Origin: Amphiscolops sp. MND2022
Taxonomy: Eukaryota
Direction of reading: 5' to 3'
DNA: 64,000 bases
Assembly (NCBI GenBank): GCA_964187785.1
Contig: OZ076409.1
Span: 31,870,001 to 31,934,000, forward strand
Of this stretch, positions 26,047-49,946 are shown piece by piece. How positions within the stretch are numbered: the first letter of the stretch is position 1; the number at the start of each line of letters is the position of its first letter. The position numbers were made by a program, and so were the translations under genes. Below the pieces are notes generated by a model. It made no database searches, was not told where the DNA came from, and saw only the letters and a list, made by a program, of their open reading frames with translations.

Positions 26047-26342
26047 GCTTCAGGCGACCGAGCCACACTACAAGTTTGCTATTCTTCCAAAGTTCCATGC
26101 ATATTAGCTGTAACAGCACTAAAAGCTAATTTGATTTTCTGCTGTAGTTGAATCCTGCTGTATGGGACCAAACTTTCATTTTCTGCTGCCCCCACACGGC
26201 ACGTTGTTAAACATTACGTTGTATAACTGTAGGAAACGCAAAGTTTCATGTGAATGAGAACATATTGTGTCGGGCACAAATAACAGCTGAGATTACAAAT
26301 CTAAACGAAAAGTTACTTTTGCCCAGTAAAATTAAGTTTTAG

Positions 26343-26420
26343 AGAGGCTCTCAGTTAGGGGATCACATAGTGTCGCCCATAACAAGACCCACGCCGAGAA
26401 CGTGGCCTCTGAAGGGTCTC
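26343..26420 (-). ncRNA. HDV-like self-cleaving ribozyme, copy 1
   Basis: P1 GAGACCC/GGGUCUU with G1-U wobble, P2 AGAGGCC/G(A)GCCUCU, P3 ACG/CGU, L3 UUCUCGG, P4 hairpin, J4/2 CUGA. Confidence 0.75.
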
Positions 26421-26963
26421 AAAAAACTAGGTTTACAAATTCTAGTACAAAAATATGCTAACTACCAGAGCTTCCGAAATTTTCTTTGGGATCAAATATT
26501 TCAAACAAATTGAACCAAAATCAATGAATTGATCAGAGAAACTTGCAAATTCTTTATCACTTTTTCGCAAGAGCTGAAGCATTAATTTCGGTAATAAGAC
26601 TTTCATCCCAAGATAGTCTATTCATCTTCAAAAATTTCAAGGGTTCATTTGAAAATAACTTATCTAAAACCATCTATGGCCTAATCCGCGGTAGTAAAGA
26701 AGTTTTTCATATAATTAGAGGTCTATGAAATCAAAATCAATATAATTAGGCATTTTTGTGTTTTCCGTTTTTTCATCATTATTTCTAGTGTGCGTCACAT
26801 TTTATTGCATCATTCCAGGCAAAAAATAACAATTAATTGTAAAAGTTTCAGTCAATTGATTGCCATTGACCTGTCTAAATCAATTAATTGCATCCTAATA
26901 ATTACAGTTGAATAACTGCGAGTTAAAACTCGGAAGCCCTGATAACTACACTTTTACAAAGTT

Positions 26964-27182
26964 TTAATTGTACAAAATACTATTTACGGGTAATCTACAG
27001 TAAGGACATGTAACAACTGCAATTGCTAAACTATCTAAATAATGTTTTATACAATCTCTACAGGCTAAATGTAAACTATGTTCTTGATGAAAACTTTGTA
27101 AGTCTTCTACTCTAACGTTTTCGAAGCAGATATGGCAATCTTTTCTGCTTTTTATAGCTTGAGGCTTCTTCTTCACCCTCAT
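26964..27182 (-). CDS. 72-aa RING-variant micro-protein (putative E3 ligase)
   Basis: CHIC...HQEHSLHLACRDC...CPYC; start MRVK is shared by the paralogues; TTTCTAG acceptor 11 nt upstream. Confidence 0.75.
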   Translation of the reverse strand: MRVKKKPQAIKSRKDCHICFENVRVEDLQSFHQEHSLHLACRDCIKHYLDSLAIAVVTCPYCRLPVNSILYN

Positions 27183-30100
27183 CGTAGTGACACCTAGAAA
27201 CTCGATACTAATAAACATTGTGCACGGACATACAAAGGATATGCGTTTGCGACTGCGTTCTTCATTAACATTGGGGGAAAATTTTGTATTAGAGGGCAGG
27301 AATGTTCAAAATGAGAACGTTACTAATAACTGATCTTGTTTTTCAGTTACTAGTATAATTACTAGTGCAATAAATGCAGGAGCGGAGTGGCGTGCCATAT
27401 GGTCATGCCTCAATGTTCACGGCCCCTAGAAAGTTGCGGAATTGAAATTAAACAAATCGCGGGAACATTTGCGTTAAAAAGTCTTGAAATACTTCGATGA
27501 AAGAGCAACGCGATGTGATTTCGAGTACTTCGATGAAATAGCAACGCGATGTGATTTTGAGTAACTTCGGTGAAATAGCAACGCGATGTGATTTTCGAGT
27601 AACTTCTTTGAATATAGCAACGCGATGTGGTATCGAAACTCTTCAAAGTAATCTGTAAGCTATGCTTGAAACCCTTTTCGACAAAAGAATTGAGATGTAA
27701 CGATCATGGAAATACTTTGTATTTAAAAAGTTTTAACAATACACCATATTTGTTTAGTTGTGAAGTTATGCTTGGCTATCACACGTCTATCGCACGTTGT
27801 TAACTGTGTAACATTGTAGTAGGAAACGCAATGTGATGACTCATCACTGATGAGCATTCTACTGTGACAGGGACTCTAGTTTTCTGCTAGCCTCTAGTTT
27901 CCTCTAGTTTCTGAGCAGAAACGAGCAGAACTGGCAGAATTGGACGTAGCTGGCAGAACTTTTTAAAACTTGAGCAAAGAAGGAAAAGTCAGTGAATTTT
28001 TGTTTACTCTACTATTTTGCCACCCCGTGTTCTTAGCCATCAAGCCCTCCCCCCATTCAAAAATTCTAAGTAGCCTCGTTGAGAAACTTGAACTAAGAGC
28101 AGATTTGGCATATCATCATTTATTTCAAAATCAATATTTATTTGAAATTTGTAGTTGAAGCTGATGATGTTTTTCACTTCAAAAGTTTCCCAAGTTTTCA
28201 CTTGCGAAAATCCAAAAGCACCCGACATTTCAAAGATTTGTATTTTGATGCCATGAAATTATTACTCTTCTGTTATTCTTGATACGTTGTGCAAAGCAGA
28301 CTTAGTGGGACATAGACCCCTCTTTTTCACTCGGCCCCGGTGGAACGGGCATTAGGTGGGACATAAAAGGTGGGACCTCCTTTGAGGCATTGTGAAAAAT
28401 GACTGAAAGTGGCTAAGAAACCATTTGCACCAAAGTTCCATTGAGTGCCTTAACACTGGCACATTATCTTCGTTTTCAAACAACACCAGTGAATGCAGAA
28501 TAGTGGGAGGCGGCTGCACATGTGCACGTGCGCAGGTGCACTGGCACTGACGAACCCCCGTGTACTCAGGTCCAGGTACCAGTCACTTTATATGTTATTC
28601 CCTTTATATCTTATTCCCTTTTTGATTCTAGATCTCATTCTTTAGATCTTATTCCCCCCTCTAATTCAATCTCACCATCAACGTTTACATCGAAGTCAAA
28701 ATTGCTTTGGCGGATCGATATCTTCCGAAGTTCGTCATTCGAGCCGTGCAACTGGCCGACTGTTCAATTGGACGAATGTGCCACTAGCCGACAAAACCTT
28801 GATTTTAAATTAGGGATGTACAAGTTGATGTACAACACGTCACTCTTCGTTCACGGCTGCCGCGTTCAGATGACGTCACAGCAGTTCTTCGGTGAAACTT
28901 TCGTTCAGTCCTGGCATGGTTCATAAACGGATTTTTAAAATTCTAATATCTTCGTTTGCATTTTCATTTTGATCGCCATTGCTAATTGTTTGAATTTTTG
29001 CCAATTAATTGCAAGTTTGAATCAAAAACAATTGAAAAGGATCGTTTCTATTTATTTTTTCGGGGATTTAGTAGCCATGGGGAGAGATGACTCTGAGGGC
29101 TGCTGTGCTGTTACTTGCACTTCTCGCACCCTCCGACAAAATGCTTTCTATAGTAATCTCTAAAGTCTATTGTCTGTTTCTAAAGTCTATAGTCACATAC
29201 TGCAAAACTTCAACCTTAATCTCCCATAATCTCCCATAATGTACAGGGCTGGGTAATGTAGCCATAGAGAGAGAGATGACTTTGAGAGGGCAGTTATTTT
29301 GCCATGAACTACGTTTTTACATCCCTTCCACTAATACCCCAAAACCAAATGATGGTAAATTTATGTGACACTAGACTTGCAGTTGTTTTTTAATAAAAAT
29401 TATTTTCAACAAAACGAATTGTTGAGCATTATCCATTCTGATGCTTGGAAAAGATTTGCTTGTCAAGATTCTGAATTGCCGCTTTGGTTTAAAATTTGTG
29501 GAAATTTTTGAGTTATTTTGAAAATATGAGAAATTTTTGAATTTGAATATTCACACCAATTTCAAAAGTATGACCATTTCTCTCAAGTTATTTGTGAATC
29601 CACAATTTTTAATTTTATTATTTTAGGCAACAGGGATACTTCAGAGAAATAGAGAAACCAACTAATTAGGAGCAACAAGTACTCAATTTCAATTATCTAC
29701 GTTAATCACAGCGCGTACAAATATTGTGAAAATTTCGTTCAGTCCCGGCATGGTTGGTAAACGGATTTCCAATTGCTTCGTTCGCCTTGCAGTTGTCTGA
29801 ATAGTAAATCGCAAATAGCAAACACCTTCACAGCAAACGACAATTCGAATTCAAAATTCTCTCCACTATTGAATTATCTACATTTTTATGATGACCAAAT
29901 AACAATAGCGAACACAGTTCAGTGAACAAGTTTAAATCTCAGGTTTTGTGAAACTCATTTCAGTTAATTGAAACAAATTCACCATTCCGAAACGAATTTA
30001 GTTTTATAAAATATTGGTTTTCTGAAATGAGTTTCACAGATCCTAAAAATTAACTTTGTCCTTAAATGAAATGTCCTTTGAAGATTAAATCAACTTTCAT

Positions 30101-30861
30101 TTGTCAATGAATTTGTCAATAAATGAAATGTCATTTGAAAATGAAATCCAGCGTCATTCGTCAATGAAACTGTCATAAAATGAATGCCATTAAATGAAAT
30201 GTCCTTAAATCTGTCATTAAATTAAACTATAATTTGCCCTTATGTTATTTGGTCTACATTTGCGTGAAACAGAATTGGTTCAATTCTTATCAGAATTACC
30301 TGTCAGAATTGCGTTTCGGAAAGTTTATTTACTTGGTTGTTTTAACTTTTATATTGTTGATATTCTGTTTAACAGGTAAGAACGTTAAAATGGTAACTCC
30401 GATATAAAAGATGTTGCAATAGTTGAAAATTGTATTGTCGAAGATTTCCGGGGTGGGGAATAATCGGTAGGGGTGAGAGGGCGATAAACGTTACAGGAAA
30501 ATTCTTTTCAAGTAACTACTACTTAAATTTCAAAATTTTGAGGTACTTCGACCAATATACTAAAATATTAAGATACGTCGACGAATTGAATACTACTACA
30601 GTAGTGATATTAGCGAAAGCAACAAAACATATAATATATATACATAAAATAGTATTTTCATTAAAATATAATTTAATAAATAGTATTAATACTATTATAT
30701 CGTCTAAGAATAATAAAAATTTAATAATTCAATAATTATTACTATTTACTAAATAGTATTTAGGATAAAATATTTATAAACATATCTTATAAGTAAAAAA
30801 AACGGATGTTCGATACAGAGTGCTCAACTAATTTTTTCACGAGGTTTCAGGAGTCAAGAGC

Positions 30862-31071
30862 ATGAGGGTCAAGCGAATGCCCCAGAAGATCTACAGTAGT
30901 TGCTTAATTTGCTTAGATGATTATAGATCAGTAGAATTACAGAGTTTGCATGAAAAACATAGATTACATTTAGTATGTAGAGACTGTTTAGATACCCTTT
31001 TAGTTAGTTTTGTAAATGTACTTAAATGTCCTTTATGTAGAATACCTGTAGATAATGTTTTATATTCTTAG
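30862..31071 (+). CDS. 69-aa RING-variant micro-protein
   Basis: CLIC...HEKHRLHLVCRDC...CPLC; TTTCAG acceptor 11 nt upstream; candidate GTAAG donor at 30376. Confidence 0.75.
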   Translation: MRVKRMPQKIYSSCLICLDDYRSVELQSLHEKHRLHLVCRDCLDTLLVSFVNVLKCPLCRIPVDNVLYS

Positions 31072-31123
31072 TTCTGTAAATTTTGTAGATTTTCTAAATT
31101 CATTGTACTATTTAGTTTACGGA

Positions 31124-31675
31124 CAGTGGTGTTAAAAGAAAAAATATCTCATTTCAACGAAAATACGTATTGACGAATGCGACAGCCAATCAAATGTGAG
31201 CAAAAACTTTTTGTGTTACAAGTTTTATAAAAATTGAAATAAAATTGAAACATGTTATAACATGGGCCAATCAGATGCAAATACAAACGGAATGTTATTC
31301 AGTTGATGAGGAATGTTGCGATTTGTTCGGACTTTTACCCTTCCCCATTTTTGCTGAATTTGCATTTTCATAATGAACAGAATTAATGATAGAATTGAAG
31401 AGTGAGTGTGAATAAAAGAATTCAGCGACGCAGTTATCTCGAAGACGGCAAAGCCCGTGAAAATGGTAGACGCAAATCTGTATGTACATTTGTTGTCCCA
31501 TTTTACATCAGCAGTTTTGTTGTATCAGCAGTTTTCACAACAAATGTACTTACAAATTTGCGTCTACCATTTTCACGGGCTTTGCCGTCTTCGAGGTAAC
31601 TGTGATTATTCATACGTTTATATTGTGGAAAAATAATTGTAAAAGTTGACAACTAATTGATTTTTAACACCACTG
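31124..31675. mobile_element. MITE-like element (CAGTGGTGTTAAAA ends) with a nested foldback at 31431-31602
   Basis: 14-bp perfect inverted ends; inner ~65-bp-arm hairpin; TSD not clear. Confidence 0.6.
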
Positions 31676-31678
31676 TTT

Positions 31679-31756
31679 GAGATCCTTCAGAGGCCACGTT
31701 CTCGGCGTGGGTCTTGTTATGGGCGACACTATGTGATCCCCTAACTGAGAGCCTCT
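31679..31756 (+). ncRNA. HDV-like self-cleaving ribozyme, copy 2 (predicted cut 5' of G31679; catalytic C31745)
   Basis: GAGATCC-TTC-AGAGGCC-ACG-TTCTCGG-CGT-GGGTCTT-G-TTATGGGCGACACTATGTGATCCCCTAA-CTGA-GAGCCTCT fits the nested double-pseudoknot order. Confidence 0.75.
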
Positions 31757-33417
31757 TTAAAATCACAGAATACTGGGCTAGCGTGCGTGTATATGTTGTG
31801 ATTTCTGATCACAACATTAACAAAGGCCCGACATTTTTGAAAAGACGTCATTATTGAATTCAGTAGTAAAGCAGAAATATAACCCAGCTTAGATGGCATG
31901 AACTTGCCTTTCTGGTTCCCCTCCAACACCAGCTACTCTCTGGCTACTATTGATTCAATCTATATTAATTGGTGATTGGAAAAACGTTAAATAATAAAAA
32001 TAATAACAAATAAACACCGTACATGTATAACAGTAGTAAGGTAAGCGAACCATTCTCATCACAAGGCGTTTTTTTTCTAAAATAGTTTCAATCTTTTACA
32101 AAATGGGGACAGGTGCTCAGATATCTAGAGATAGGCGACAACAGATACTTACCTAATGAATCTGGATTTCATGGAGCAAGTTACTATTCTGCCCCGGTGG
32201 AGCATCAGAGTGTTTAACTTCGGTGATCTAACGAGCGGATGCTGTTGCTCCGAGCCATAGTCCCCTATTTACGGTAAACTAATTTGAATATATATACGCA
32301 ATACATGTAAAAACTCCACGCTGCGTTCCATCACATTTCGTTTGTTTTAGCTCACACCATACTGTTATAAACAAAAATACATTATATAAAAGACGGTAGG
32401 TGGTGTTCTTAATAAAAAACTGGGTGCAATTCTTGTCACTTTTAATTTGTCGCAATTATTCTTTTCTGCAATTTAAATTATAAAAAATATTTATAATAAG
32501 AGAACGCACATCGCTGTAAAAGAGCCTGAGAGAGATTAGGTTAGTCACATGCGCAGGGATGATATGTATCTTCAGCTGTGGATTCCCAAATAACTTATGA
32601 GCAAATAACAAAATCTAATTTAGTTTCAAATAACAGAAATGAAATCACTTCCAAATAAAATTGTTTACAAGAAAGTTTTGCTGAAAACAATGAAAATTAC
32701 ACATAAAGTTTCGTGTTTCCTGGAATTCCAAAAACCTGGAATTTGGTTTTATTTTTATGCTAAATAATTAAATCTCATTTTGTAAATGGTAAGTGGGACT
32801 AATTTTGTTGTGATGAGAACTGAACTGATAAAGAAACACAATGTGATTGAGTCTGAAAAAAGGGCTTTCATATCGAGCATGAAAACACGCCTTATTTTCA
32901 CCTCAAACAAAATTTTTTGATTGCAAAGTTAAACTCTTTTTTTTGCAAAATAAAATTATTGCCACAGAGACGCAACATGTTTGATATCCCAAAGTGTTTG
33001 CAATCAATATCAATCACATTGCGTTTCTTTTAGATCATACGTCTAGTGAAACATTACACATCTAATCTCAATCATATTGCGTTTCTTTCTCTACGTTAAT
33101 TCAAACAAAATCCCACCTTTTATGTCCCACTAATTGCCCGTCCCACCAAGGCATAGTAAAAAGGGGTCTATGTCCCACTAAGTCTGGTTTCCTCAACACA
33201 ATCCACTAAGTTTTTACAATCATATAATAGACTAAATAATAAGGGTAATATATAGAAAACTAATACAATAACTTGACCAATAAGGGACTTTTATATGAAT
33301 GTTTTCTTGTTTGGAGAAAAAATTTCTTCAAAGAAATCAAGTTCCGTACATATTGGCTGTGACAGCACTAAAAGTTGGTAGTTTGAATTCTGCGGTATGG
33401 GACCGAATTTACATTTC

Positions 33418-33474
33418 TGGGTGAAGTGCCCTCAATGTAGAAAAGAAGATTGTGTGCTTAGATTGTGGGTCTAA
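33418..33474 (+). pseudogene. Orphan 3' exon of the spliced micro-RING gene (WVKCPQCRKEDCVLRLWV*)
   Basis: Homologous to exon 2 at 39561-39636. Confidence 0.5.
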
Positions 33475-35456
33475 AATGACAATTTTTGTTCACTGTGTTT
33501 CCTTTTTATCAAACTTACTTTGAGGTTGCAGGTGTCAAGAAGAAAGTCAATTCCAAAGTCAATTCTAAAGAAGAAAGTCATGAGAAAAAATGCCCCCCCC
33601 CAAAAAAAAACGAACAAAATGTTTGTTGGTATTTGTTTCATGTAACACACAAATAAAACAGAAAGTAGAACAAAAGCTGAATCTTCTGAATTATTTTTGC
33701 TTTTGACCGTAAACAAATTTAATTTATTAATCATATAAGTACGCAGCAACCAACAGCATTTTGTGGTATTTCTAATCAGGGGTGCGCAATATTGCATTTA
33801 TATTTCTTTCACTGTATTTACATCACAGAAATTTGTGTGTATTAACCGACTACGACTACTGGCGAATAAAATGATTACGTACCAAATAACATACAGGGTT
33901 ACCGAAAAAATCATTCCAATGGAAATAACTGCAATCAATCAATAATAACAATCGATTAGAAGCCGCATTAGGCATGAAAAGTTAATCATAAAAGCCACAG
34001 CTTACTGTATTTCTTCGAATATAAGCAGCCAAATCTAAGCAAAAAAGCCTGGTTGGAGTAATCATACTGCGCGAGGAAGTGGAGAAGGACATTGCTCTCA
34101 ACACTGCTGCATTTCGACGTAATTACGGTGTAAATTGATGTTATTCATTCGATATGCCATAGAACAACATCAACAATAACAGTGGTATCTATTCCATAAA
34201 CCCTGTCGGTGGCTCCTACCGAGGCTCGAACCACTGTTTCACTATGCAGCTAGTGTGAGAGCAATCTTTCGCGCAACCGACTACTCCAACAAGACCTTGA
34301 AGCATCCGGTAGTGTTGCAGTTCATATACCATATTTACTGCGAACCAACGAATATATGACAACGCGGGAGCCAACAGCCCTTTTAAATAATTCTTGATAC
34401 GCCAGCTTCACGTACCTGCGTTGTCAGGTTTGACAAGAGCTTAAAATTGTTTGAAGTGCAGTCGAATCTCACTTTCATATTGTATACCCTCATTGAGAGG
34501 TAAAACTCATTATCGTTGGTCATTTTGAATCTCCGTCCTCCCAAGTTATAAATATAACATCCTCCTATTAAAATGCAACTTTCGATATGAGGTCTCTTCC
34601 CATTCTTCCCGATAAATGTTAAAAGTCAGGTGTTAAGTGTTAAGTTAAAATGGAGCAAATCCGGTTTGAGCCAATCAAATTTCAGAAAAATGGATGGACC
34701 GGAACGAAGTCCTCACGCAAAATTGAGTTGTGAATTAAAAAGTTCATTTTTCTCTGAAGTTTCCCGGGCTTTCGTTCCGGTCCGCATGCTTTCAGCCAAT
34801 CAGATTGCAGAGAAATCGCAGTACGCTCTTTCTGAAGAGGATAAACAAAAGTATAAACAAGTAAGGCAGCATAAGGACGGAAAGATGCAAAAGGCTCAAA
34901 ATAGACCGGTACCACCAAGGTTGTAAAATATTGTATTTCAATATATTTTTGCATGAAATTAAACTATTTATATTTATTTTTCATTTGGTTTTTGAAGTTT
35001 GCTATACCTACAGCTAGCTTGTTTGCCTTGAAGTACACTGAACGACAGAAAAGTAACGCAATGTGATTGAGCATATTTGTGATTAGCGTACGTGTAACTT
35101 AATTAATTGTTAAGTGTGTGGAATTCCGTGTGGAATTAATTAACTGAACATCACACCGCGTAGTTAATTCATATGATATTACCTGGAAATCACACCGTGT
35201 TGCTAATTCTTCATTGAATATTACTGAAAATCACACCGCGTTGCTATTTCATTGAATATTACTCAAAATCACAGAAATTTCAAACAATTATTTTTGTAAA
35301 CTAGATGAAAGTCTAAAAAACTTTGGTAGCTGACAATTTTTTTTGTATTCGTGACTGTAGCATGGTATCTCTAGAAACTAGCTCAAGATTTCTGTATTAT
35401 CGAATTTAATCATTGAATTCAGTATGACATTCCTTATTGCCTTTTTCTACAACTGT

Positions 35457-36235
35457 AAGGGGTACCGCAAAATTAATTGCCATAAAATTTCCTAGCTTCC
35501 ATAAATAATTTTCATGGATGACAGCTGTCCATAAATTATTTCCATAATCTTCTCAGAAAAATAAATAATGGCAATTATTTTTTGAATTACAAGAAATAAT
35601 ACTTAAGTCAGAACATGGAGACAAAAAGTACATGTACAATTATACCAGCGTAGAAATCAACTCAGCGTCCCAAAATTTTTGTTGACGATTAGAAAAGTTC
35701 GGCTTGAAGATGCATTGACGACAACTGTTGACAACTAACCGCTAACAGCCAGACTGGATGCTGTGAAAATAATGGCTGCCATAATTCTCAGAAATCCATA
35801 AATTATGGCAATACTCCTTTGTCCAAAAATAAATTATTTTTATAGATTACGTACCAAATAACAAAAGTGCAAATAACATTAAAACAAAATTAGTGTCAAA
35901 TAACATAAAAATAAAACCGAATACCCGGTTAAACAATCGAACTCAGAAAATGTTATCTGTAATTTCCACACTTTTTTCAGTGAATCGTTTGATTTGTGAA
36001 TGCTTTTGACCACTAAAACTTTCTCGTAAACAATTTTGTTTTTCTGTTTAGTGAAACCCATTTCATTTTTATGTTATTTGAAACTAATTTCATTTTTATG
36101 TTATTTGAAACTAATTTTGTTTTTATGTTATTTGCTTTTATGCTATTTGGGAATTCACCATTTTTATGGAAGACCCAAAAAATTAATTATTTATGGCCAT
36201 TATTTCCACAATGAATTATTTTTGCGGTACCCCTG
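35457..36235. mobile_element. hAT-type MITE
   Basis: TIR AGGGGTACCGCAAAA; 8-bp TSD acaactgt. Confidence 0.85.
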
Positions 36236-36639
36236 ACAACTGTTCACATTCAACAGTGACAGTTTTAAAGATATTTGGATTTTAAAAATGAACTCTTTTT
36301 GTTTCAAAATTTTTCAAAATGGGGACAGTTGCTCAGAGCCAGCTATGATATCTACAGATATGATCACAAAGATGCCAATGAACCCTCCTCCTAAGTGTTG
36401 TTTAACTTCGGTGATACCAACAAGCGGAAGCTGTTGCTCTGAGCTATAGTCCCCTATTTACAGTGAAATAATTAGAATTTATATACACAGCAGGCCTGCT
36501 GGTTAATCGTGGCGCGAATTACCGCGAATTTCCCGCGAATAACCAGCAGCCTTTTACAGAGTCAATGGTGTCCGTTCAATTACTTTCTGCATATGAGCTC
36601 ACCGATGACGTCACTAGATCACTCAGTGCTGCAAAATAA

Positions 36640-37110
36640 AGATAAATTTTCGAACGTTTTGAACTTCTACTTGAACAAAATGAAATCTATATTTTCCAGT
36701 CAATATGAGTTATTCAAAACTCGTTTACGGAGCTCTCTCAAAAACCTTAGCATTCAAGTTAAGCGAGAGAGAAATGAACATGAGAAGAGTTTGTTCTCGA
36801 AAGTAACCCAATTGGAGAATATTATTTTGTCTGACGTGAATGAAGGTGATCCGAAGGCTTTGAAAAATATGTTAGCTTCTAGACGTAATAAAAACAACAT
36901 CAAATTGCTGAAAATTGATAAAGGCGAAATACTTACAGAACAAACACAAATCTTGAATGAGTTTCAAAAATGGTATGGAAAAACATTGAAAGAAGACCTT
37001 TCTGATGAAACAACACCTGAAAAAATTGCGGATATTCAATCTTCCTACATAGAAAAGCATTTATATGTACCTTCTCGAAATTCATCTGACGATAATGAAA
37101 ACATATCCGA
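36640..37110 (+). pseudogene. Fragment resembling the L1/Tx1 LINE ORF2 linker region
   Basis: IKLLKIDKGEILTEQTQILNEFQKWY resembles the segment preceding the RT domain; no RT present. Confidence 0.45.
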
Positions 37111-37781
37111 AAGATTGTTGAGATGTTTTATATTTATTTTTTCTTATTTTGCTTCATCGAGGTATTTAATTAAAATTAACTATTCTGCGTGTCGAAAGAA
37201 CAAGTCCCACGGAAAATTAAATTGAAATAACTAGTAGTAGCAAAAAATCAATAATATTAAAGTCGACATTATTTAATTACTTTGGGTCAGATGAGACATG
37301 GCGTTACATTATAATGGTCCGATTGCCAAGTAGCAAACTTTCTCCCTAATTCAGCTTTTTTATTGTAAAAATGTTTATTTTGTGCAAGAATAATTTTCGG
37401 ACTCGAGATCGTATGTTCACATACCCCTAGTGCCCTATATACAGGAGCGAAGCGAAGCGGAGCGACGTGCCATATGGCCATGCCTCAATGTTGCTACTTG
37501 GCGAAGGAAGCGAAGCGACCGAGCCATACAACAAATATGCAAACTTTTTCAAATAAATCAATATTAGCTGAAATGTGGCGAAAATAAACGTGGCGATCTT
37601 ATATGGTGGCTAACTTAAACGTGGCTAAGTTTTACGGGCTAACTTATACGTGGCGAACTTAAATATGGCGAACTTACAACGGCACCATTTTTGTCAATTT
37701 TCACTGTCTCATAGGAGGTCCCACCTTTTATGTCCCACCTATTGCCCGCTCCACCAAAGTTCAATAGAAAGGGGGTCAATG

Positions 37782-38290
37782 CAGGGCTGGGTCATCCGCA
37801 ATTATTGTGTACAATTATTGCAATTATATTGCGTACAATTATTGTGGGAGGCGAAATTAAATATTGCAATAATTGTGTCACCACTGAAAAATATTGTACC
37901 CAATTTCACTATTCGTGGTATTCGCCAATTTTTCTTAAAATCTGCCTGAAAATTTAACAGTTTCCGTATTTTACTTCAAAACATGCTTTTGAAACTATTT
38001 TTGTCGTGTGGTAAAATCATTGCTACCTGTTAATCTGGAAGCTCAAATTTTTTTTTGCGCTAATAAAAACATTTGGAACGTTAAAACCATCGACAACCTA
38101 ATCAATAACCAAGTACCTTGATTTAATACTCCCAAAAAACATAATAAATTGTTTTAATGTTATCGTTTTTTCCAAAAAATATTGTACAATAATTGCAATA
38201 ATTGCAAGTATTGTGGGATGCCGTCTTGAAAATTGCAATAATTGAGGATTGGAACGTTATTGTATTGCAATTTAATTGAATCCAGCCCTG
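37782..38290. mobile_element. hAT-type MITE inserted into a GGTGGGAC element
   Basis: TIR CAGGGCTGG; perfect TSD ggtcaatg splits the GGGGTCAATGTCCCAC motif. Confidence 0.9.
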
Positions 38291-38985
38291 GGTCAATGTC
38301 CCACTAAGTCTGGTTTCCTCAAAACACAGACATTTTTTCTCAATGAATGAGTTCAATGAATTTTTTCTCTCGTAAATGATGTTTTACATTTGAGAGTTCT
38401 TTGTTGTTTCTACATTTTTGAATTATTTCATTTATCATTCTGAATAATGCTTAATCATTATACAAAGTAATTAAATTTTTCAAATCAAATCGTTTTAGCT
38501 CATACCAATGATTATTTTAGGATTTTGACAGAATAACAGACAATAAATTAAATTAAACAAAACGAATTAACAAAAAAAGCCCCAGACAATATATCAAGAG
38601 GGATCCTTATATTTAAAGAGTGATTCTGGATGTGAATCTTTATTCACTGTATTTCGAAACTTAAACTAACAGCAGTTTTCGCATATCATCTTTTATTTCA
38701 AAACTTGGTGGTAATTAACTTGATTCACTAATATCACTAACATAGAAAATTGTGCAAATACAAGACGTTATTTCAAATATTCAAGTAGATGGTTACTTGT
38801 GTGAAAGGACAAAACAAACTTTTACTAAACAAAGCAAGGTATAGATAAAAGATAGAGTTAAATAACGATGTTTTTCGTCAATGATTTGACTCCATTGATC
38901 ATTCAAGCTCCTAACACTGATCGCAAAACACTATCAAAACACCTTAATCTTCAAAATTTCGTCACTTTTCCTACGAAGTATCCAA

Positions 38986-39636
38986 ATGCTGCTCTGTGCC
39001 GTTTGTGGGGAGGAACTGTACAACCTTATTTGGTGGCTTGATGAGAAACACGCAATATGCCGGGAGTGCCGTAAGGCTTGGATCAAAAGCCTAGAGAGGT
39101 GAGTTTTACAGAACTTTGCTTTTGAAGTTTGTAGTTGAAGCTGACAATGTTTTTTACTTCAAAAGTTTCCCATATTTCCATGAACAAAATTCCAAAAACT
39201 TTCGTTATTTCAAAGATAGTTTTTTGATGCCATGAAATTATTACTTTTGAGTAATTCTTGATACGTTGAGTAAAGTAGAATTAGTGGGACATATACCCCC
39301 TTCTTCACTAGACCTTGGTAGGACGGGCATTAGGTGGGTCATGAAAGGTGGGACATGAAAGGTGGGACGTCCAATTAGACGTTCAAAAATTATTGAAATT
39401 GGCAAAAAAAATTGTTGGAGCTAACATTCTACAAAGTGTCTAATCCCCTGCACATTGACTCCGTTTCCAGATCAAGAATTAATAAAACGGAACAAAAAGT
39501 TTGAAATGAACTAACTTATTCATGATTGTGTTCATAAATTATCCATACTGTGATTTACAGGCAAACGACCACTGACAGCATCATTTGGGTGAAGTGCCCT
39601 CAGTGCAGGAGAGAGAGCGTGCTTAAATGGAAGTGA
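38986..39636 (+). CDS. Spliced 62-aa RING-variant micro-protein (exons 38986-39098 and 39561-39636); not in the ORF track
   Basis: MLLCAVCGEELYNLIWWLDEKHAICRECRKAWIKSLERQTTTDSIIWVKCPQCRRESVLKWK; GTGAG donor and TTTACAG acceptor, phase 2. Confidence 0.7.
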
Positions 39637-41374
39637 GAGGTTGATCCAATTTCAGAAATTATAAAACTTTTTCAAATAAACTGATTTTATTTTTATTTAC
39701 ATTGACTTTGTATAAAAAAAACAATAAACGGACCATGTTATCTATTTCCCCCCCAGGTACACCTTGTTAGGAATATCCCCCCCAACACGAAAGCACATTT
39801 TGTTCTTGAATAAAAATATTTCGCTAATAAGAGAATATTATATGAATGTAAATACTTAGAGGATTGTCTCCACAACTGTTTGGACACTTCAGGCAAAAAA
39901 ATATCATATATTTTTTTGATATTATTGTCCAAAATAGCAGAAATTCATGTTGGGAACATGCTAAAATTGTATAAAAAGGCCCTTATTTAGCGCAAATTTT
40001 GTCCGCTATAAAATCTAAAGAGCAACTTTTAACTGACAGTCAATGTAATTGATAGGATTATGTCGACATCAATTATTTTATTGGACTAAAATTTCAACGC
40101 AACGATGTCGACATAATGGTATTTGAACCTTGTGTCTTATTTCCCCCCGCCGCAGTTTGGGGGGGAAATAGATCACATGGTCCCAATAAACTTGTTCAAT
40201 CACATTTTTTCATTAGTAAACTCAATTCTTTTTTTCCTTTTTCTACGCCAGGTCTTCCACATTTGTATTGCAATATCATTGCGGCTCTCAATAACTTATT
40301 TCTATTGCGCGCTGAGGAAAAACAATTTTCTAGACAAAATATACAAATACGTCCAAAAACGCCCGGTTTGAGTAATTATACTGCGCGAGGAAGTGGAGAA
40401 GGACATTGCTTTCAATACCGCTGCATTATTGCCACGGTGGAGGCGATTGGAACATCAACAATCACAGTTGTATCTATTCCATGCAATATCTGGTGGTATC
40501 TATTGCAATAATTTCACAATATATTTTACAGTCAAATGAGTTATACAATTATATAACTTTTGAAACATTTTCTGCCGACCCGAGTTCCCTGTTATTATGG
40601 AGAAATTGAATGGCCTCCGCATGCAGTGGTGACAATGCATGTCGCAAATGAGTTTGTGTCAACCAATGCGACACAATTCTATTGGCTGACGACACAATTC
40701 GTCATTGCAGAATTATTTTGGCGATTAGATACATAATTTTTATTTCAAGATCCAAAAATGAATCATTTTTCTTCCATGATCTCAAAAATAAATTTTTAAT
40801 ATATATTTGTTGCAGGTATTTCCATTGAAGTAATTTTTTCGGTAACCCTGGTCAATATAAAATTATTTTTTAGAAATAGTGAAGTCATTTGTTTTTGAAT
40901 TATTACGTCAATATTTGGTCGCCCTGAAGATCACGAACCAAATAATATGAGCAAATAACACAAATATCTCAAATAGAAGTTGTTTCAAATATAATTTTTC
41001 AAATAGAAGTCGCCCCCGAATATAAGCCGCCCCCGATTAGAGCCACATTAAGCATGAAAAATTTATCCTAAATGCCATTGCGCACCGTATTTCTTCGAAT
41101 ATAAGCAGCAAAATTACTGCAGAAAGAAAAACGGTAAAAGAATTAAGGTAATAATAATGATAACGTTCCAACTAACATAATTTAGTTCGTTGTGATGGGA
41201 ATTGAACTGATAAAGAAACGCAATGTGATTGAGCATGAAAATTGCATTCATCATTCACAACCTACAGCTAGCTTGTTGCATAGACTGGAGTTCATTGAAC
41301 GACGGACGGAAAAGAAACGCAATGTGATTGAGCATGCTTTTGTGATTAGCGTACATGTAACGAGGAACGTTCTA

Positions 41375-42635
41375 CAGTAGCCTTCTAACATATCGCAACT
41401 CAATTGTGCAAAAATGCAAGTTTCAAATCAAACTATCTTAAAAACTATCAGAAATACGAAAAATTGTCAGGTAAGAAAGTTTCTAAGAAATTTATCTAGT
41501 TTACAAAAATGTCGATTTGAAATTTCTGTGACAAAAAATACATTAGTTAGAAATTGCACTTTTGACAAAATTTAATCAAATTTGTATTTTTTTTCTGGAT
41601 TTCCATAAAGTTGAAAGAATTATTTGAAAAACTCAGGGGTTGGACAGGGGTTGGCAATAAATAATTATTGAAAAAATTTTGTCAATAAATAAATAAGAAT
41701 TATTTATTTCGAGATCGAAGAAATAAAAATAAATTATTTTCCTTGGTAAATAAATTTTACAGTAAACTGAAACGTATTGTTGCGGGATAATTGAATTGTT
41801 AGTAGAATTTGAGTGGACGCCGAGAGCTGTGATTTGCTAACCGAGCAGTATTCACAAATTATAGAAAGGAGACATCTCCAATCAAACCTAGAGGCGCAGA
41901 TATTCCTCCAGTTCAATAAAGAATACATATTGGAATGTCAGGACTGTAGCAGATTTGATTGAGTTTTTTTATTGATTTTATTTTAAATAAGTTCAATAAT
42001 TTATTTCTTCCCAAGCACAATAAAAATTATTTATTGCTAGGCTTGTATTGTATTGCAATACATTATTACCAACCCCTGCCTGAGGATGCTGATATAAGTT
42101 TATCGGAACACTTTTTTGATTTCAAAGAAAAATCATCAATTTTCTAAATACAATTCTTATAGCCAATCTTAATACAGGTCCCACCTTTTATGTCCCACTT
42201 AATGCCCGTCCCACCAAGGCCTAGTAAAAAAGGGGGTCTATGTCCCACCAACTCTGGTTTCGTACACGTAGTTCAGTGCTCATAGACACAAAATAAAGTG
42301 TATTTTTTTTCGAACAAATTTCTCAATCAAAACAATTCAGTAGGTTCGGGAGATTAAAAAGTCTCCGAATCAAATAAAAGAATATATTTAAAAAATCAAT
42401 TCTAAGCTACTCAATTTTCGAAAAACTCCAATTTTAACTAAAATTTTCTAAAAATTGCAATTTTCAACTTTTTTGGTAACGGTTGTAGAAAAACAAACAT
42501 TTTTGTAAACTAGATAAAGTTTTCAGAAACTTTCCTAGCTGGCAAAAGTTTGTATTTGTGACAGTTTGAGAAATTTGGTTTTGAATTTTGCCATTTTATG
42601 CTATGAGGTTGCGATATTAACAGAGAACGCTACTG
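41375..42635. mobile_element. Tc1-type non-autonomous element (CAGTAGC ends) containing a hAT-like MITE (41645-42078) and a GGTGGGAC element
   Basis: TA|CAGTAGC...GCTACTG|TA. Confidence 0.6.
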
Positions 42636-43098
42636 TACAGTATATCTAAATCTTAATACCTTGAAAACTGTCACAAATTCAAAAAACTGTCAGCTGAGAA
42701 AGTTTGAGAATTTAATCTAGTATAAAATACTTGCCAAAATTGCTATTGTTTTTTTTAAGTTACAGAAAATTAAATGCATTCAGTTTGGTTTCGTAAGCGT
42801 TGGTGGGACATGTACACTTTTTTGCATGCCCTTGTTGGGACAGGCATTAAGTGGGACATCGCAAGATGGATGAGTTTTAAACTGAAAAAATTTATAACGA
42901 GTTCAATTTAACAAAAATGAAATTCATTTTACTAAACATAAATAGGAACCGGAAAATAGTTGATTTTTTGGGGGGCAAAATAGTTGATAAAATAGTTGGT
43001 AAAAAACGGAATTGGTAAAAAAAAGTTGAATTTGTCATGTCTTACAAATGGAGAAACTCTACAAACTACAGAAAGTTTTAGTTGGCAAAATCCACCAC

Positions 43099-43555
43099 CA
43101 GGGATTGGTAAAGATTAATTGCATTGCAATTAATTGCATTCATCTCTCACAACTGATTGATTGTCAGCCGTCGATAAAACCAATTCATCGATTGCAAAAC
43201 ATGCAATTAACTGCAATTATAAACTATACTTTTCGTTTCAATTCACTTTATATTTTGCCTACATCGAATCTAGCCGTTTTTTCAGCATGGCGGGATTTGT
43301 CTGATAAGATTTGTGTCAGAGAATAATCCCACGTAAACTGGAATCTCAATTATTTCTCAAAGTGAACTTTCATTTGTGGAGTAAATACACTTGTGGAGAC
43401 AGCTATCTTTTAAAAAGTTAAACTTTGTCTAGCTGCTTTTTTGTTTGAATTTTGCAATTAAATTCAGTGATTGATTGCAAAAACGACCAATTGAAATTAA
43501 TTGTTTCCAAAAAAACAGCTACCATATAATTGCAATTAACTTTTACCAACCCCTG
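43099..43555. mobile_element. hAT-type MITE
   Basis: TIR CAGGGRTTGGTAAA; TSD tccaccac/tcaaccac. Confidence 0.8.
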
Positions 43556-43715
43556 TCAACCACTATTTGGTTAAGTAAAATTTAAGGTGGTTTCCCAAAT
43601 GACATAAATGCAAATAACAAAAATAAATTTATTCCCAGAAAACATAAAAGTACATTGAATTCCCATTTAACATAAAAACAAAATAATATTATAACGTAGT
43701 CAGATATGTTCACAA

Positions 43716-44248
43716 CAGGGGTTTTCAAAAATTAAATGATGAAAAATTAATTGCAATTAATTGAGTAAATAATTGATTTGAAAGCCCCAATTAATTAAAA
43801 AGCGGATTTACTCAATAGCAATTTTAATTGCAATAATTGGCCAATTTTTGACTACCTAAAATAAGACTAAGTCGCGTGCCATATTGAAAATCTCTCGTAT
43901 TGGTGAGGCACCGGCAAGAGCAGCCTCTATATATCTCCCAACTTCATTTTACCAACTTCTGATATGGTAGAACGATTTTTCAGCAATGCCGGATTTGCTT
44001 TTTCTGATTTTCGCCAAGCATTACTGCCAATAAACTTGGAAATGCAACTCTTTTTAAAGGTTAATCACCGATTTTGGGACGATCATACTGTCGATACTGT
44101 GAAAAACTCAGTAAATATCAATGCCGAACAATTGACCAATTAATTGCAATTAATTGGTTTTAAGCCAATTATATTGGTATTAATTTTTGATTTAACAATT
44201 AATTGAAATTTAATTTTTTGTTTGAAAATTAATTTTTCAAAACCCCTG
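43716..44248. mobile_element. hAT-type MITE, second copy of 17485-18015
   Basis: Perfect TSD gttcacaa, different from that of the first copy. Confidence 0.9.
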
Positions 44249-45341
44249 GTTCACAAACCCCTAGTGCCCTTTAAAACAATGCTGTGGAAATGTGAATGAT
44301 TTTAATCAAAAAACCAACTAACCAACATGAAACGAGTTAGGTCACCAATAAGTTAGGCTTTGTATAACATAGTAAAACAGAACTAAAGGAAAAAGATAGA
44401 AGTAGTTCCAGGAATCCTCGAAACTCTTCACGGTAATCTGTAAGCTAAGATTGAAACCGACAAAAGTTTTGAGATAATTGGTCTTGGAAAGACAAGAAAA
44501 TCAGAGGAATTAGGCGGGGGAAAATAAGTTCATCAAAACTGAATTTTAACTCAAATCGATGTTGCTACTTGGCGAAGGGAGCGTATGCAAACCTTTTCAA
44601 ATAAATCAAGTTCCAACATATTGGCTGTAACAGCACTAAAAGCTAGTATTTTGAATTCTGCTGTATGGGTCCAAGTTTTCATTTTCTGCTGTATGAATAG
44701 GCACCTTACAATACCTTCACAGTACATGTATTCAGTGCCGCAACGTGCTACTTAAAGGGCATTGACAATTCGGGCAAGGTGCGAATTTGCTGAAGCAAAA
44801 TAGTTTTGTGGCGTTATGCTCGGCTGCTATCACACAATCATCGCACGTTGTACACCGTTGTACAACGTGCGATTGTGATAGCAGCCGAGCATAACGTCAT
44901 CACAGTTCGTTTCCATCACATTATACATGTAACTGTAGGAAAAGAAATGTGATGATTAGGGCAACCGCGATTTGCCCTTTATTTTTTTTAAATTTTGCCC
45001 TTTATTTGCCGCCCTTTATTTTAAATTTAGATTCTATTTGCCCTTTATCAGCACGCGTTTGAAAGCGAGGATTTAACAAAAAAGTCAAATTCGTTTATTA
45101 ATTTCAAAGTTCTACCCATTCATTTGAAAAAGAATATTTGAATTGATCTCAATTGAACTCAATGATTGTAATCAGAATGACAAAACTCAACCTAACGTAA
45201 ACCGCTAAACTTTTGTGTGCATGTTCTACCAATGCTCGTATTCAGAAACTTTGATGTCAGAAAAAATGTCGGGCTGAAGTGAAAGTTATGATCAAAAATC
45301 ACAACCTTGAAACACTGACACCCATTATCATGTATTTTCAA

Positions 45342-45419
45342 AGAGGCTCTCAGTTAGGGGATCACACGGTGTCGCCCATAACAAGACCCACGCCGAGAAC
45401 GTGGCCTCTAAGGGGTCTC
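45342..45419 (-). ncRNA. HDV-like self-cleaving ribozyme, copy 3
   Basis: Same fold; differs from copy 1 only in J1/2 (CUU) and the P4 loop (CGU). Confidence 0.75.
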
Positions 45420-45962
45420 AAAAATCTAAGTTTACAAATTCTAGTACAAAAATATGCTAACTGCCAGAGCTTCCGAAATTTTATTTGGGATCAAATATTT
45501 CAAACAAATTGAACCAAAATCAATGAATTGATCAGAGAAACTTGCAAATTCTTTATCACTTTTTCGCAAGAGCTGAAGCATTAATTTCGGTAATAAGACT
45601 TTCATCCCAAGATAGTCTATTCATCTTCAAAAATTTCAAGGGTTCATTTGAAAATAACTTATCTAAAACCATCTATGGCCTAACCCGCGGTAGTAAAGAA
45701 GTTTTTCATATAATTAGAGGTCTATGAAATCAAAATCAATATAATTAGGCATTTTTGTGTTTTCCGTTTTTTCATCATTATTTCTAGTGTGCGTCACATT
45801 TTATTGCATCATTCCAGGCAAAAATTAACAATTAATTGTAAAAGTTTCAGTCAATTGATTGCCATTGACCTGTCTAAATCAATTAATTGCATCCTAATAA
45901 TTACAGTTGAATAACTGCGAGTTAAAACTCGGAAGCCCTGATAACTACACTTTTACAAAGTT

Positions 45963-46181
45963 TTAATTGTACAAAATACTATTTACGGGTAATCTACAGT
46001 AAGGACATGTAACAACTGCACTTGCGAAACTATCTAAATAATGTTTTATACAATCTCTACAGGCTAAATGTAGACTATGTTCTAGATGGAAGCTTTGAAG
46101 GTCTTCTACTCTAAAGTTTTCGAAGCAGATGAGGCAATCTTTTGTGCATTTTATAGCTTGAGGCTTCTTTTTCACCCTCAT
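45963..46181 (-). CDS. 72-aa RING-variant micro-protein (paralogue of 26964-27182)
   Basis: CLIC...HLEHSLHLACRDC...CPYC, within a ~900-bp duplication of 26343-27240. Confidence 0.75.
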   Translation of the reverse strand: MRVKKKPQAIKCTKDCLICFENFRVEDLQSFHLEHSLHLACRDCIKHYLDSFASAVVTCPYCRLPVNSILYN

Positions 46182-47401
46182 CGTTGTGACACCTAGAAAC
46201 TCGAAACTAATAAACATTGTGCACGGACATACAAAGGATTTGCGACGGGGGTCCTTCATTTACAGGGTGAGGTGTCACGAAGCAGAAAATTCACTAAGCC
46301 GAAAAATGAAATTTTGCGAAAGTGAATTGGTTTCCTCAAGCCTTCGAACAATAAACCTACAATAACTTAAATTATTTATTTTCTTGATTATTCCCTTGGC
46401 CATACATTAATGGGAAACATATGTGTTCCATACATTAATGGAAAATAAAATAAACCATTAATGGTCATTATTTAAACATTATTAACCGGTCAAAATTAAA
46501 GCATTGTGTGCAAAATACTTAAAAATTCGTACATCAAATGCGATTTCCATTAATTACACCACGTTCCATTAATTTTTGACAGTCCCTGCGAACCTTACAC
46601 CCTTGGCTGGAATTAATTAACTGAACATCACACCGCGTAGTTAATTCATATAATATTACCTGGAAATCACACCGCGTTGCTATTTCATTGAATATTACTC
46701 AAAATCACACCGCGTTGCTATTTCATTGAATATTACTCAAAATCACACCGCGTTGCTATTTCATTGAATATTACAGTAGCGTTCTAAAATATCGCAACCT
46801 CATTGCATAAAATAGCAAATTTCAAATCCAAATATCTCGTAAACTGTCACAAATACGAAAAACTGTCAGCTAGGAAAGTTTCTTAGAATTCTATCTAGAT
46901 TACAAAAATGTTTGTTTGAAATTTCTACGACCCTTACTGAAAAAGTTAGAATTTTCAATGTTTTGTTTTCATTAGATTAGGACTTCGTTAGCCGAATTTA
47001 CTGGCTCTAGTTTTACTTCTTGTCCGCTTCCAAAGCTTCTCTGTTGGCTAATACCCTCTTTTTGAAAAACAACGAATATTTGTGTAATATATAATTCATT
47101 TTCCTCTCTCTGCGCGTTTCGCGGCGTTTACGAAACCAGAGTTGGTGGGACCTAGACCCTCTTTTTTACTAGGCCTTGGTGGGACGGTCTACGTTAACTC
47201 AAACAATTTAGAGCTTTGTACAGAAAATGACTGTATATGAAAAAATTAATTGATCATCTAAATACAAAAATATATATGAAAAGGTCAAATCAACAAGTTT
47301 CTTCTGTTGAAGCAGTAGTGAAAGAGTGGCTCGAGAGGGCTTATAATTTCTTCTTTGGATTTCTGCTGTACTGGATTTGATTTGAGGGGTACTGGTTGTG
47401 T

Positions 47402-49852: not shown

Positions 49853-49946
49853 TAAAGCGAACTTTTTTCAAATGTCAATGATTGCAAAATTTGAACTGAA
49901 ATAGGTTAGAAATGATTAGAATATAGGGATTCCATTCGTTTATCAC

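Follow-up and report, generated by a model that had tools for sequence, protein, structure and literature searches.

The stretch of DNA analysed here (the window) comprises 64,000 nt of Amphiscolops sp. MND2022 (OZ076409.1, positions 31,870,001–31,934,000; assembly GCA_964187785.1). It contains three RING micro-ORFs: copy 1 (W1; 26964..27182, minus strand, 72 aa, type r1), copy 2 (W2; 30862..31071, plus strand, 69 aa, type r2), and copy 3 (W3; 45963..46181, minus strand, 72 aa, r1-like). All three passed the Pfam zf-C3HC4 cut-off of 21 bits (24.0 bits for copy 1, 22.3 and 23.6 bits for the others), and copy 2 also matched zf-C3HC4_3 at 27.2 bits (cut-off 27). The ligand pattern of copy 1, as read from its sequence, is C-x2-C ... 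H-x2-H-x2-C-x2-C ... C-x2-C. In both subtypes His takes the place of Cys as the third ligand, and the alignment of W1 with W2 retains the eight zinc-ligand positions of the cross-brace. The predicted products thus qualify as RING fingers of the C3HC4 type.

Each micro-ORF is followed on its own sense strand by the same 78-nt sequence, located at 26343..26420 (copy 1, minus strand; identical to the genome-wide consensus), 31679..31756 (copy 2, plus strand), and 45342..45419 (copy 3, minus strand). The gaps between stop codon and element are 543, 607, and 543 nt, respectively, as the original prediction had it. A 25-nt core of the element has three exact matches in the window, with none expected from 100 shuffles.

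The 78-nt element as a candidate HDV-type ribozyme

The 78 nt can be parsed as a nested double pseudoknot of the HDV type, which makes them a candidate ribozyme. Read from the sequence, the helices are P1 (nt 1–7 with 31–37), P2 (11–16 with 73–78), and P3 (18–20 with 28–30); the 3' strand of P1 starts directly after that of P3, and a G1-U37 pair lies at the base of P1. The fold further includes the L3 sequence UUCUCGG, a C23-G38 pair, P4 (39–66), and C67 directly after P4; P1.1 amounts to one base pair only and J1/2 to 3 nt. We take the numbering of P1, the P3 closing a 7–8-nt L3, and G1-U37 to match the genomic HDV ribozyme, and the short P1.1 presumably resembles that of CPEB3. The differences among the window copies were as originally described: in copy 2, where the putative catalytic C67 is position 31745, C5 is changed to T, turning a C-G pair of P1 into U-G, and copy 3 is altered only in J1/2 (UUC to CUU) and at two bases of the P4 loop.

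HDV-like ribozymes are described as having the strand order P1-P2-P3-P3'-P1'-P1.1-P4-P2', with P1/P1.1/P4 and P2/P3 as the two stacks (PMC4908430), and a P1 of about 7 bp that anneals to the 7 nt just 3' of L3/P3 and whose first nucleotide marks the cleavage site (PMC4908430; PMC3774820). A catalytic C is located in J4/2 and the conserved L3 residues include a G (PMC3774820), and a J1/2 of 3 nt or more gave activity (PMC4908430). As far as primary sequence can tell, the 78 nt agree with these descriptions in topology, position of P1, the C in J4/2, L3, and J1/2. The residue C17, which lies between P2 and P3, departs from the classical descriptor's zero-length junction (PMC5640933); in an alternative register, drawn by the nested minimum free energy (MFE) fold, it pairs with G31 to give a 6-bp P1 and a 4-bp P3.

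Of 50,000 dinucleotide shuffles, 21 produced such a nested fold with its anchors at nt 1 and the 3' terminus. Across 24 copies, 98% of 544 pair cells were paired, as compared with 23–53% in slid controls. C67 was invariant in all 24 copies, most core positions were likewise unchanged, and a U preceded G1 in every context seen. The HDV-type parse put forward originally is supported.

A further, improbable explanation is that the 78 nt form a non-catalytic look-alike fold, and that the identity of the copies is due to gene conversion between repeats or to a role at the DNA level, such as a promoter or a protein-binding site. This would fit with the outcome of the database check that had been proposed: the HDV-type models of Rfam, which are narrow and cannot score pseudoknots, gave no match at the gathering score or at E up to 10 (in 501 nt and 181 nt), which sets the element apart from the genomic and antigenomic HDV and CPEB3 ribozymes that those models represent. 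It would also fit with a nested MFE fold no better than that of shuffles (z = -1.09), and with two-sided changes in none of the 26 base pairs in the 24 copies, although these copies average 98% identity, so that nothing varies. Hundreds of identical copies would offer ample template for conversion, and the Pr77 hallmark of trypanosomatids is described as a DNA-level promoter besides being a ribozyme (PMC4035085). Against a look-alike speak the core features, all of which are at canonical positions, the invariance of C67 and most of the core, the match of the conserved block to both ends of the fold in several subfamilies, and the strand-specific, RNA-level covariation in the adjoining tail (see below).

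Constraint, decay, and copy number

When W1 and W2 were compared, the identity was 69% in the leader, 75% in the ORF, 67–70% in the spacers, and 62% in the tail, but 77 of 78 nt in the element, bearing out the claim that copy 2 combines a diverged RING protein with a ribozyme one base off that of copy 1. The near-identity block and the fold cover the same stretch: subfamilies become homologous to each other at -2 to -5, and in several of them the ends of the block match both ends of the fold to within a few bases. This comparison indicates that the 78 nt have been strongly constrained while the subtypes diverged. Between W1 and W2, the ORF has a dS of 0.83 and a dN of 0.36, and its dN/dS of approximately 0.3–0.4 indicates purifying selection between subtypes. 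Within the young family 2, both parts decay neutrally (26 changes in 1638 nt of ribozyme and 47 in 3312 nt of ORF), and the RING ORF contains stops at four of 15 loci. The proposed selection is supported for the ribozyme between subtypes, where it is 99% identical; within family 2, the ribozyme is no better preserved than the ORF.

Genome-wide (1.07 Gb), there are 322 exact matches to the 25-nt core and at least 150 strong matches to the RING ORF. A single score, that of the copy 3 type, is common to 34 of the 150 matches listed, consistent with many near-identical copies of this type. Of 42 RING ORFs cross-checked by coordinates, 31 had a perfect core 486–566 nt downstream, and both of the two fetched from the other 11 had a decayed ribozyme instead; the r2 ORF was upstream at all 15 family-2 loci. 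The linkage to RING ORFs on the same strand is borne out across the genome. It is not complete: ribozyme-tail units without an upstream RING were found at two loci (L046 and L047) and as second copies in family-2 blocks, some copies are cut short towards the RING (L049 at -138 and L050 at -207), and an intact ribozyme was missing at eight of 29 flank-selected loci. Copies with broken P1 or P3 and copies unlinked to RING genes had been named in advance as evidence against the module; some copies do have a broken P1, P3, or L3 and some lack the RING, but most are linked.

These numbers bear on the narrow version of the original prediction, according to which a host-selected self-cleavage device in the 3' UTR adjusts the abundance of a few E3-ligase mRNAs. 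Rodent Clec2 genes, which carry a hammerhead ribozyme in the 3' UTR, are comparable. The position of the 78 nt downstream of a stop codon on the sense strand fits such a device, as do the purifying selection seen when the ORF is compared across subtypes and the 133 of 150 scored RING ORFs, among the matches listed, that have no stop; SIDER2 in Leishmania 3' UTRs provides a precedent (PMC4035085). However, the perfect cores and RING ORFs are carried by large, nearly identical dispersed repeats, copies within a family decay neutrally, and the protein family has only six close clusters among 5.8 billion proteins. We therefore regard the host device as the least probable of the explanations considered here, and the view of a special host module present three times gives way to one of hundreds of copies, many of them decaying. 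As a whole, the original interpretation is partly supported.

Spacers, tails, and carrier repeats

The conserved unit consists of the RING ORF, a short spacer, the ribozyme, and a structured tail of about 75 nt. In the window, the spacers are enlarged. Approximately 475 nt of the copy 1 spacer (26421..26963, minus strand; relative positions -519 to -44) are missing from compact copies elsewhere, and the copy 2 spacer, which had been called unrelated, owes its appearance to an insertion at 31124..31675 (plus strand), whose 14-nt termini are perfect inverted repeats and which contains a long hairpin; compact spacers are found elsewhere. An AATAAA is present in the W1 and W3 spacers upstream of the ribozyme, so the RING message may already end before it.

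The tail directly follows the ribozyme and is of type A in copy 1 (26268..26342, minus strand), type B in copy 2 (31757..31833, plus strand), and type C in copy 3 (45267..45341, minus strand). Type A has an outer stem, a 9-bp hairpin, and GCCCGACA at the end, the sequence in which the tail terminates. There are 17 consensus pairs, with compensatory changes in three and several G-U pairs that exist on this strand only; of the roles originally proposed for cleavage (forming the mRNA 3' end, destabilising the mRNA, or releasing a downstream RNA), this covariation favours a functional RNA downstream of the putative cleavage site. The tail motif was found only beside the ribozyme, in the window (three of three, 0.02 expected) and likewise at the other loci.

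All three copies in the window sit within large dispersed repeats. Copy 2 is carried by a family-2 repeat, whose share in the window is 28940..33215 (plus strand) and whose other copies are homologous over >10 kb. The carrier of copy 3 is a repeat of ~17.6 kb (35754..53382, minus strand; colinear with, for example, C4:19232559-19249238), which is 97–99% identical at many loci and whose ends recur at many loci. It has no terminal inverted repeat, and no Pfam transposon domain was found among its ORFs of at least 70 aa.

A possible, though somewhat unlikely, reading of this arrangement is that ribozyme and tail make up a non-autonomous retroelement headed by the ribozyme, comparable to NARTc or to the SIDEs derived from R2. 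The RING gene would then lie outside the element, serving it as a favoured site of insertion or as the donor of a promoter; the ribozyme would trim the element out of read-through transcripts from that gene, and the tail would be the 3' handle for the reverse transcriptase of a LINE. HDV-like ribozymes are reported to free retroelement RNA from co-transcripts (PMC4035085, PMC3774820, PMC3414825). The pairing of ribozyme and tail is universal while the RING is sometimes missing, one RING type occurs with tail A in W1 and with tail C in W3, homology ending at +84, and the RING-side truncations at L049 and L050 point the same way. On the other hand, homology runs at least 10–30 nt upstream of G1 in eight of eight distinct contexts, and therefore no copy begins at the cleavage site; a 5'-terminal ribozyme with unrelated upstream DNA was not found, as homology of spacer and RING ORF continues in every subfamily examined. 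Nor was there a target-site duplication or an A-tail after GCCCGACA, a partner LINE 3' end (i.e. a ribozyme-free tail) in the window or in ~300 kb of loci (a sample of ~360 kb), a reverse-transcriptase domain among the ORFs of at least 70 aa in 20–53.5 kb, or an empty RING gene among those checked.

Proposed function and relation to known ribozymes

We favour, with a probability of slightly below one half (roughly 0.45), the explanation that the 78 nt are a real HDV-type ribozyme, which cuts the RING transcript from a ribozyme-plus-tail RNA within an amplified repeat unit. The 78 nt would be the part that stays constant in a small transcription unit made up of a short leader, an ORF of ~70 codons for a RING variant, a short spacer (ancestrally ~55–75 nt, and longer in the window copies owing to insertions), the ribozyme, and the 75-nt tail; carried along by the very large repeats, this unit would have reached hundreds of copies. 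On transcription, the ribozyme would cut between U(-1) and G1, leaving the RING message with a U-rich 2',3'-cyclic-phosphate end, parted from the further product of the polymerase, and setting free a 5'-OH ribozyme-plus-tail RNA of ~153 nt or more. The sequence and its compatibility with the fold, the copy number, the linkage, the constraint between subtypes, the covariation of the tail, and the neutral decay of young copies are observations; transcription of the unit, catalysis by the 78 nt, and the importance of one or the other cleavage product are what we infer. Weighing against this explanation are the absence of an Rfam match and of covariation in the ribozyme fold, the one-pair P1.1, C17 at the P2-P3 junction, the decay within family 2, the flank-selected loci that lack an intact ribozyme, the ribozyme-tail units with no RING, and the AATAAA ahead of the ribozyme. 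It is also conceivable, if rather unlikely, that the unit represents a self-contained, ribozyme-dependent selfish cassette of an undescribed kind. In such a cassette, a virus-like micro-RING gene would have its message ended by the HDV-type ribozyme rather than, or besides, by polyadenylation, ribozyme plus tail would be a functional small RNA, and spread to hundreds of copies would have taken place on giant (~17 kb) repeats with no recognisable transposase or reverse transcriptase.

Eukaryotic HDV-like ribozymes are mostly understood as processors of the 5' ends of non-LTR retrotransposons. The candidate found here is locked behind a micro-gene and before a covarying structured RNA, and is near-invariant amid diverging surroundings. 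If it cleaves, it would offer a natural and very abundant test of the role of a ribozyme 3' of an ORF (end formation, insulation, decay, or release of a small RNA) and of whether ribozyme-bearing repeats spread without an obvious retroelement body.

The Pr77/SIDER and R2/SIDE ribozymes come closest as precedents. The R2, L1Tc, and SIDE ribozymes resemble the 78 nt in fold class, size (77 nt for L1TcRz), high copy number, and proposed excision from a longer co-transcript by cleavage at nucleotide 1 of P1, and SIDEs, described as just a ribozyme and a 3' handle, resemble the ribozyme and tail (PMC4908430, PMC3774820, PMC4035085, PMC3414825). Unlike in those elements, the RING ORF upstream of the putative cleavage site belongs to the repeated unit, and their hallmarks (a copy starting at G1, reverse transcriptase, A-tail, target duplication, LINE tail) were not found in the material analysed. 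The Pr77 hallmark of SIDER2 is likewise ~77–79 nt, HDV-like in fold, and common to several diverged repeat families (PMC4035085), and it is often located in the 3' UTRs of Leishmania protein genes, where it is tied to site-specific endonucleolytic mRNA cleavage (PMC4035085; PMC2323293). This likeness is one of description, and none is expected in sequence; the genome here is large and unrelated and carries Maverick-type elements, a conserved covarying tail follows the ribozyme, and, in place of a general scatter over 3' UTRs, the upstream gene is always of one micro-RING family co-amplified with it.

In fungal HDV variants, P2 and P3 are separated by an additional nucleotide, most often C, which runs counter to the older descriptors yet allows fast self-cleavage in vitro (PMC5640933); C17 would occupy that position in the register with a 7-bp P1. 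In those variants, whose gene associations vary widely (Li and Breaker 2017, PMC5640933), a loop-E motif replaces part of P4, whereas P4 is an ordinary interrupted helix here. In that register, the element adds an example with an extra C that searches with the older descriptor would miss. Since there are hundreds of copies in the genome, we are dealing with a new setting, the RING-plus-ribozyme repeat module, rather than three special genes, and with a kind of ribozyme, HDV-like, that is already known.

Fold of the 78-nt sequences and their RING partners

When the three 78-nt candidates for HDV-like ribozymes were re-examined, all were found at the positions of the original prediction, namely copy 1 at 26343–26420 (−), copy 2 at 31679–31756 (+) and copy 3 at 45342–45419 (−), each in sense orientation downstream of a small ORF (26964–27182 (−), 30862–31071 (+) and 45963–46181 (−)), with gaps of 543, 607 and 543 nt, respectively. 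The ORFs score as RING fingers, weakly but over the zf-C3HC4 cut-off of 21 bits (24.0, 22.3 and 23.6 bits). Zinc ligand no. 3 is His, and alignment showed that eight of eight ligand positions are retained between the two diverged RING subtypes (r1 and r2). The search for protein relatives found only six close clusters, none of them named; the nearest neighbours in the protein atlas were small viral RING proteins (scores 0.90–0.91), which we treat as a lead only. The exact 22-nt core pattern of the ribozyme had no match in viral contigs or metagenome contigs, and a single viral-contig match to the RING protein (22 residues) was rejected, as it was not a RING and was without a ribozyme nearby.

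As had been parsed previously, a complete HDV-type nested double pseudoknot can be drawn on the 78 nt. It consists of P1 (1–7/31–37, closing pair G1–U37), a 3-nt J1/2, P2 (11–16/73–78), P3 (18–20/28–30) enclosing L3 UUCUCGG, a single-pair P1.1 (C23–G38), and P4 (39–66), an interrupted helix immediately followed by C67 (window position 31745). The HDV-like class is defined by these features in PMC4908430 and PMC3774820. The fold deviates by C17 between P2 and P3; an extra C at this junction is typical of fungal HDV variants active in vitro, according to PMC5640933. In an alternative register, a 6-bp P1 is combined with a 4-bp P3, as in the nested MFE fold, the energy of which is unremarkable (z = −1.09). 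Of 50,000 dinucleotide shuffles, 21 yielded the same topology with both ends of the 78-mer as anchors.

The Rfam check that had been proposed for the ribozyme was negative: no HDV-type family appeared at E up to 10 in 31500–32000 or in 31670–31850 (181 nt), and zero families reached the gathering score in the whole window. The sole notable weak match, c-di-GMP-I (E 0.008, 31524–31596 (−)), lies inside an inverted repeat of the copy-2 spacer, within the insertion described below, and was read as chance. Across the ribozyme copies, 98% of 544 pair cells are paired and two-sided changes were found in 0 of 26 pairs; since the copies hardly vary, covariation is uninformative for the ribozyme. The negative Rfam result, the unremarkable MFE energy and the lack of two-sided changes speak against membership of the HDV-like class. 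Single-sided changes preserve a pair in about half of the cases, a suggestive excess, the events being few and some of them common by descent or located at CpG sites. RING paralogues of greater divergence (75–80% identity) might bear covarying ribozymes.

The common unit and its tail

As judged from the comparison of subfamilies, the long spacers of the window copies are secondary. In copy 2, a MITE-like insertion (31124–31675; 552 nt, with 14-nt perfect inverted termini and a long internal hairpin at ~31395–31600) separates the RING stop codon from the ribozyme, and the spacers of copies 1 and 3, which include an AATAAA, contain ~475 nt absent from compact copies elsewhere in the genome (loci L048–L050), in which the stop codon lies ~55–75 nt from G1. 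The common unit reads, from 5′ to 3′, leader, RING ORF, short spacer, ribozyme and 75-nt tail. The leader is ~60 nt long with a splice-acceptor-like 3′ end (tttctag), and the short spacer terminates in a U run, position −1 being U in every context.

The tails are of three types (A, B and C) with the same length and a mutual identity of only 62–79%. Kept in all three are UUAAAA, an outer stem (UGGGY/GCCCG), a 9-bp hairpin and the terminal GCCCGACA. RNAalifold gave 17 consensus pairs for the tail, three of which show compensatory changes (for example, U–A versus A–U in six and five sequences), and several G–U pairs are possible on this strand only. The tail motif was found only immediately 3′ of the ribozyme, in the window (3 of 3, versus 0.02 expected) as at ribozyme-adjacent positions in the loci taken from the genome.

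Copy number, linkage and carrier repeats

The pairing of RING gene and ribozyme had been described as present three times, a figure that does not hold for the genome: the exact 25-nt core of the ribozyme has 322 occurrences in the 1.07-Gb assembly (162 forward, 160 reverse), versus 0 for the reversed core used as a control. With the 78-mer, 1088 first-look candidates were obtained; identity was 99–100% in each of the 40 scored. The RING-protein search of the assembly gave 633 candidates; E was below 1e-31 for 150 of 150 scored, among which 17 had in-frame stops and 34 had one identical score in common.

Counts of co-occurrence supported the linkage to RING ORFs. When the coordinates of 42 RING ORFs on contigs C1–C6 were cross-matched with the listed cores, 31 had a perfect core 486–566 nt downstream on the same strand, and both of the two inspected among the remaining 11 had the ribozyme in place, mutated or partly deleted. 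At ten-kb loci of family 2, the dispersed repeat carrying copy 2, an r2-type RING ORF lies ~880 nt upstream of the ribozyme in 15 of 15, with stops in four. Seen from the ribozyme side, a RING ORF is upstream of at least 46 among the 100 cores listed (31 by coordinate match and 15 from family-2 loci and the window). Ribozyme units devoid of a RING ORF also occur (for example L046, L047, inverted second copies within family-2 blocks), and these second copies are truncated at −137 relative to G1.

The repeat carrying copy 2 is homologous across all 10 kb taken at each of the 14 other loci of family 2, and no long ORF was found in these 10 kb per locus. Copy 3 is carried by a repeat of ~17.6 kb (about 35754–53382), parts of which are seen again on at least 11 large contigs, with 97–99% identity at 11 to ~28 scored loci; its colinearity with C4:19232559–19249238 is complete, and its ends recur. 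A terminal inverted repeat was not found, and the ends, judged by eye, are unlike Helitron termini. Pfam transposon domains were absent from ORFs of ≥70 aa in the 20–53.5 kb part of the window. The window segment spanning all three copies is duplicated at ~99% on four other contigs.

Other features were observed in the same stretch. A large, near-perfect palindrome at 46772–49008, which lies ~600 nt 5′ of the RING gene of copy 3, has arms 46772–47042/49008–48738 (100%) and 47185–47886/48701–48005 (98%) with mirrored 145-aa ORFs, and belongs to the 17.6-kb repeat at other loci. A 535-nt element occurs at 43716–44250 and 17485–18017 (99% identity); the former is an insertion that other copies of the 17.6-kb repeat lack. 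An element at 53382–64000 has its terminus directly against one end of the 17.6-kb repeat, a junction also present at two loci on contig C9. This element, Maverick/Polinton-like by its gene set, extends past the right end of the window; it encodes an integrase core (rve, E 1.4e-10) together with large ORFs of polymerase-like and capsid-like type, and an A32-like packaging ATPase was recognised below the cut-off. A 659-aa open frame at 290–2269 (−) is built from about ten tandem copies of a 38-residue repeat with a high content of Ser, Thr, Lys and Glu; the repeat is open in each of its three frames. At 2654–6051 (−), exon-like ORFs encode a SET domain (E 7e-8) and, below the cut-off, a C-terminal JmjC/cupin part; they probably represent a host chromatin-modifier gene or genes.

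Constraint, decay and interpretation

As had been claimed, the ribozymes of copies 1 and 2 are nearly the same (77 of 78 identical) though their RING subtypes are deeply diverged: identity is 69% in the leader, 75% in the ORF, 67–70% at the spacer ends and 62% in the tail. For the ORF, dS is 0.83 and dN 0.36, versus 0.17 and 0.047 between copies 1 and 3. Thus, the ribozyme stands out as a nearly identical island, the edges of which match the fold, in a unit old enough for near-saturated synonymous sites.

The young family 2 is without a comparable signal of ribozyme constraint. Among 29 further family-2 loci picked by their downstream flank, independently of the ribozyme, the ribozyme was present at 21, where the changes numbered 26 over 1638 nt (1.6%), and an intact one was missing at eight. 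In 16 family-2 copies, the RING ORF was changed at 47 positions out of 3312 nt (1.4%), comprising three synonymous changes, 39 non-synonymous changes and five stops. Unselected second copies carry fold-breaking changes, the 5′ strand of P3 being replaced in six and a C of L3 changed to G in one. We read this as constraint operating on source copies, most genomic copies being dead offspring.

In some family-2 copies (L065 and L077, and also L057–L059 and L061), unrelated AT-rich sequence substitutes for the ribozyme exactly to its 3′ edge and likewise terminates in TTTAAAA; it may represent either a recombinant or another kind of head. At two family-2 loci (L068 and L070), the last ~18 nt of the ribozyme are left, preceded by a different, GC-richer stretch of ~90 nt in which no ribozyme parse was found.

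Heads and tails have been shuffled, as r1 occurs with tail A in copy 1 and with tail C in copy 3, homology stopping at +84. The main rival explanation, a SIDE/NARTc-like retroelement with the ribozyme at its head, is therefore attractive, but copies beginning at G1, as in a SINE-like reading, were not seen in the contexts examined, nor was there an A-tail or target duplication as expected of such an element, a partner LINE tail or an empty RING gene. The most economical reading is that the 78 nt are a genuine HDV-like ribozyme, integral to an amplified RING–ribozyme–tail transcription unit, with catalysis and transcription both presumed. Cleavage between U(−1) and G1 would separate the RING transcript from the downstream RNA and release a structured ribozyme–tail RNA; the covariation of the tail argues that this downstream product matters. 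In the literature searched, no report was found joining HDV-like ribozymes with RING-finger genes. The nearest published parallel is Pr77/SIDER2 of Leishmania, in which, according to PMC4035085, the ribozyme hallmark lies within the 3′ UTRs of genes.
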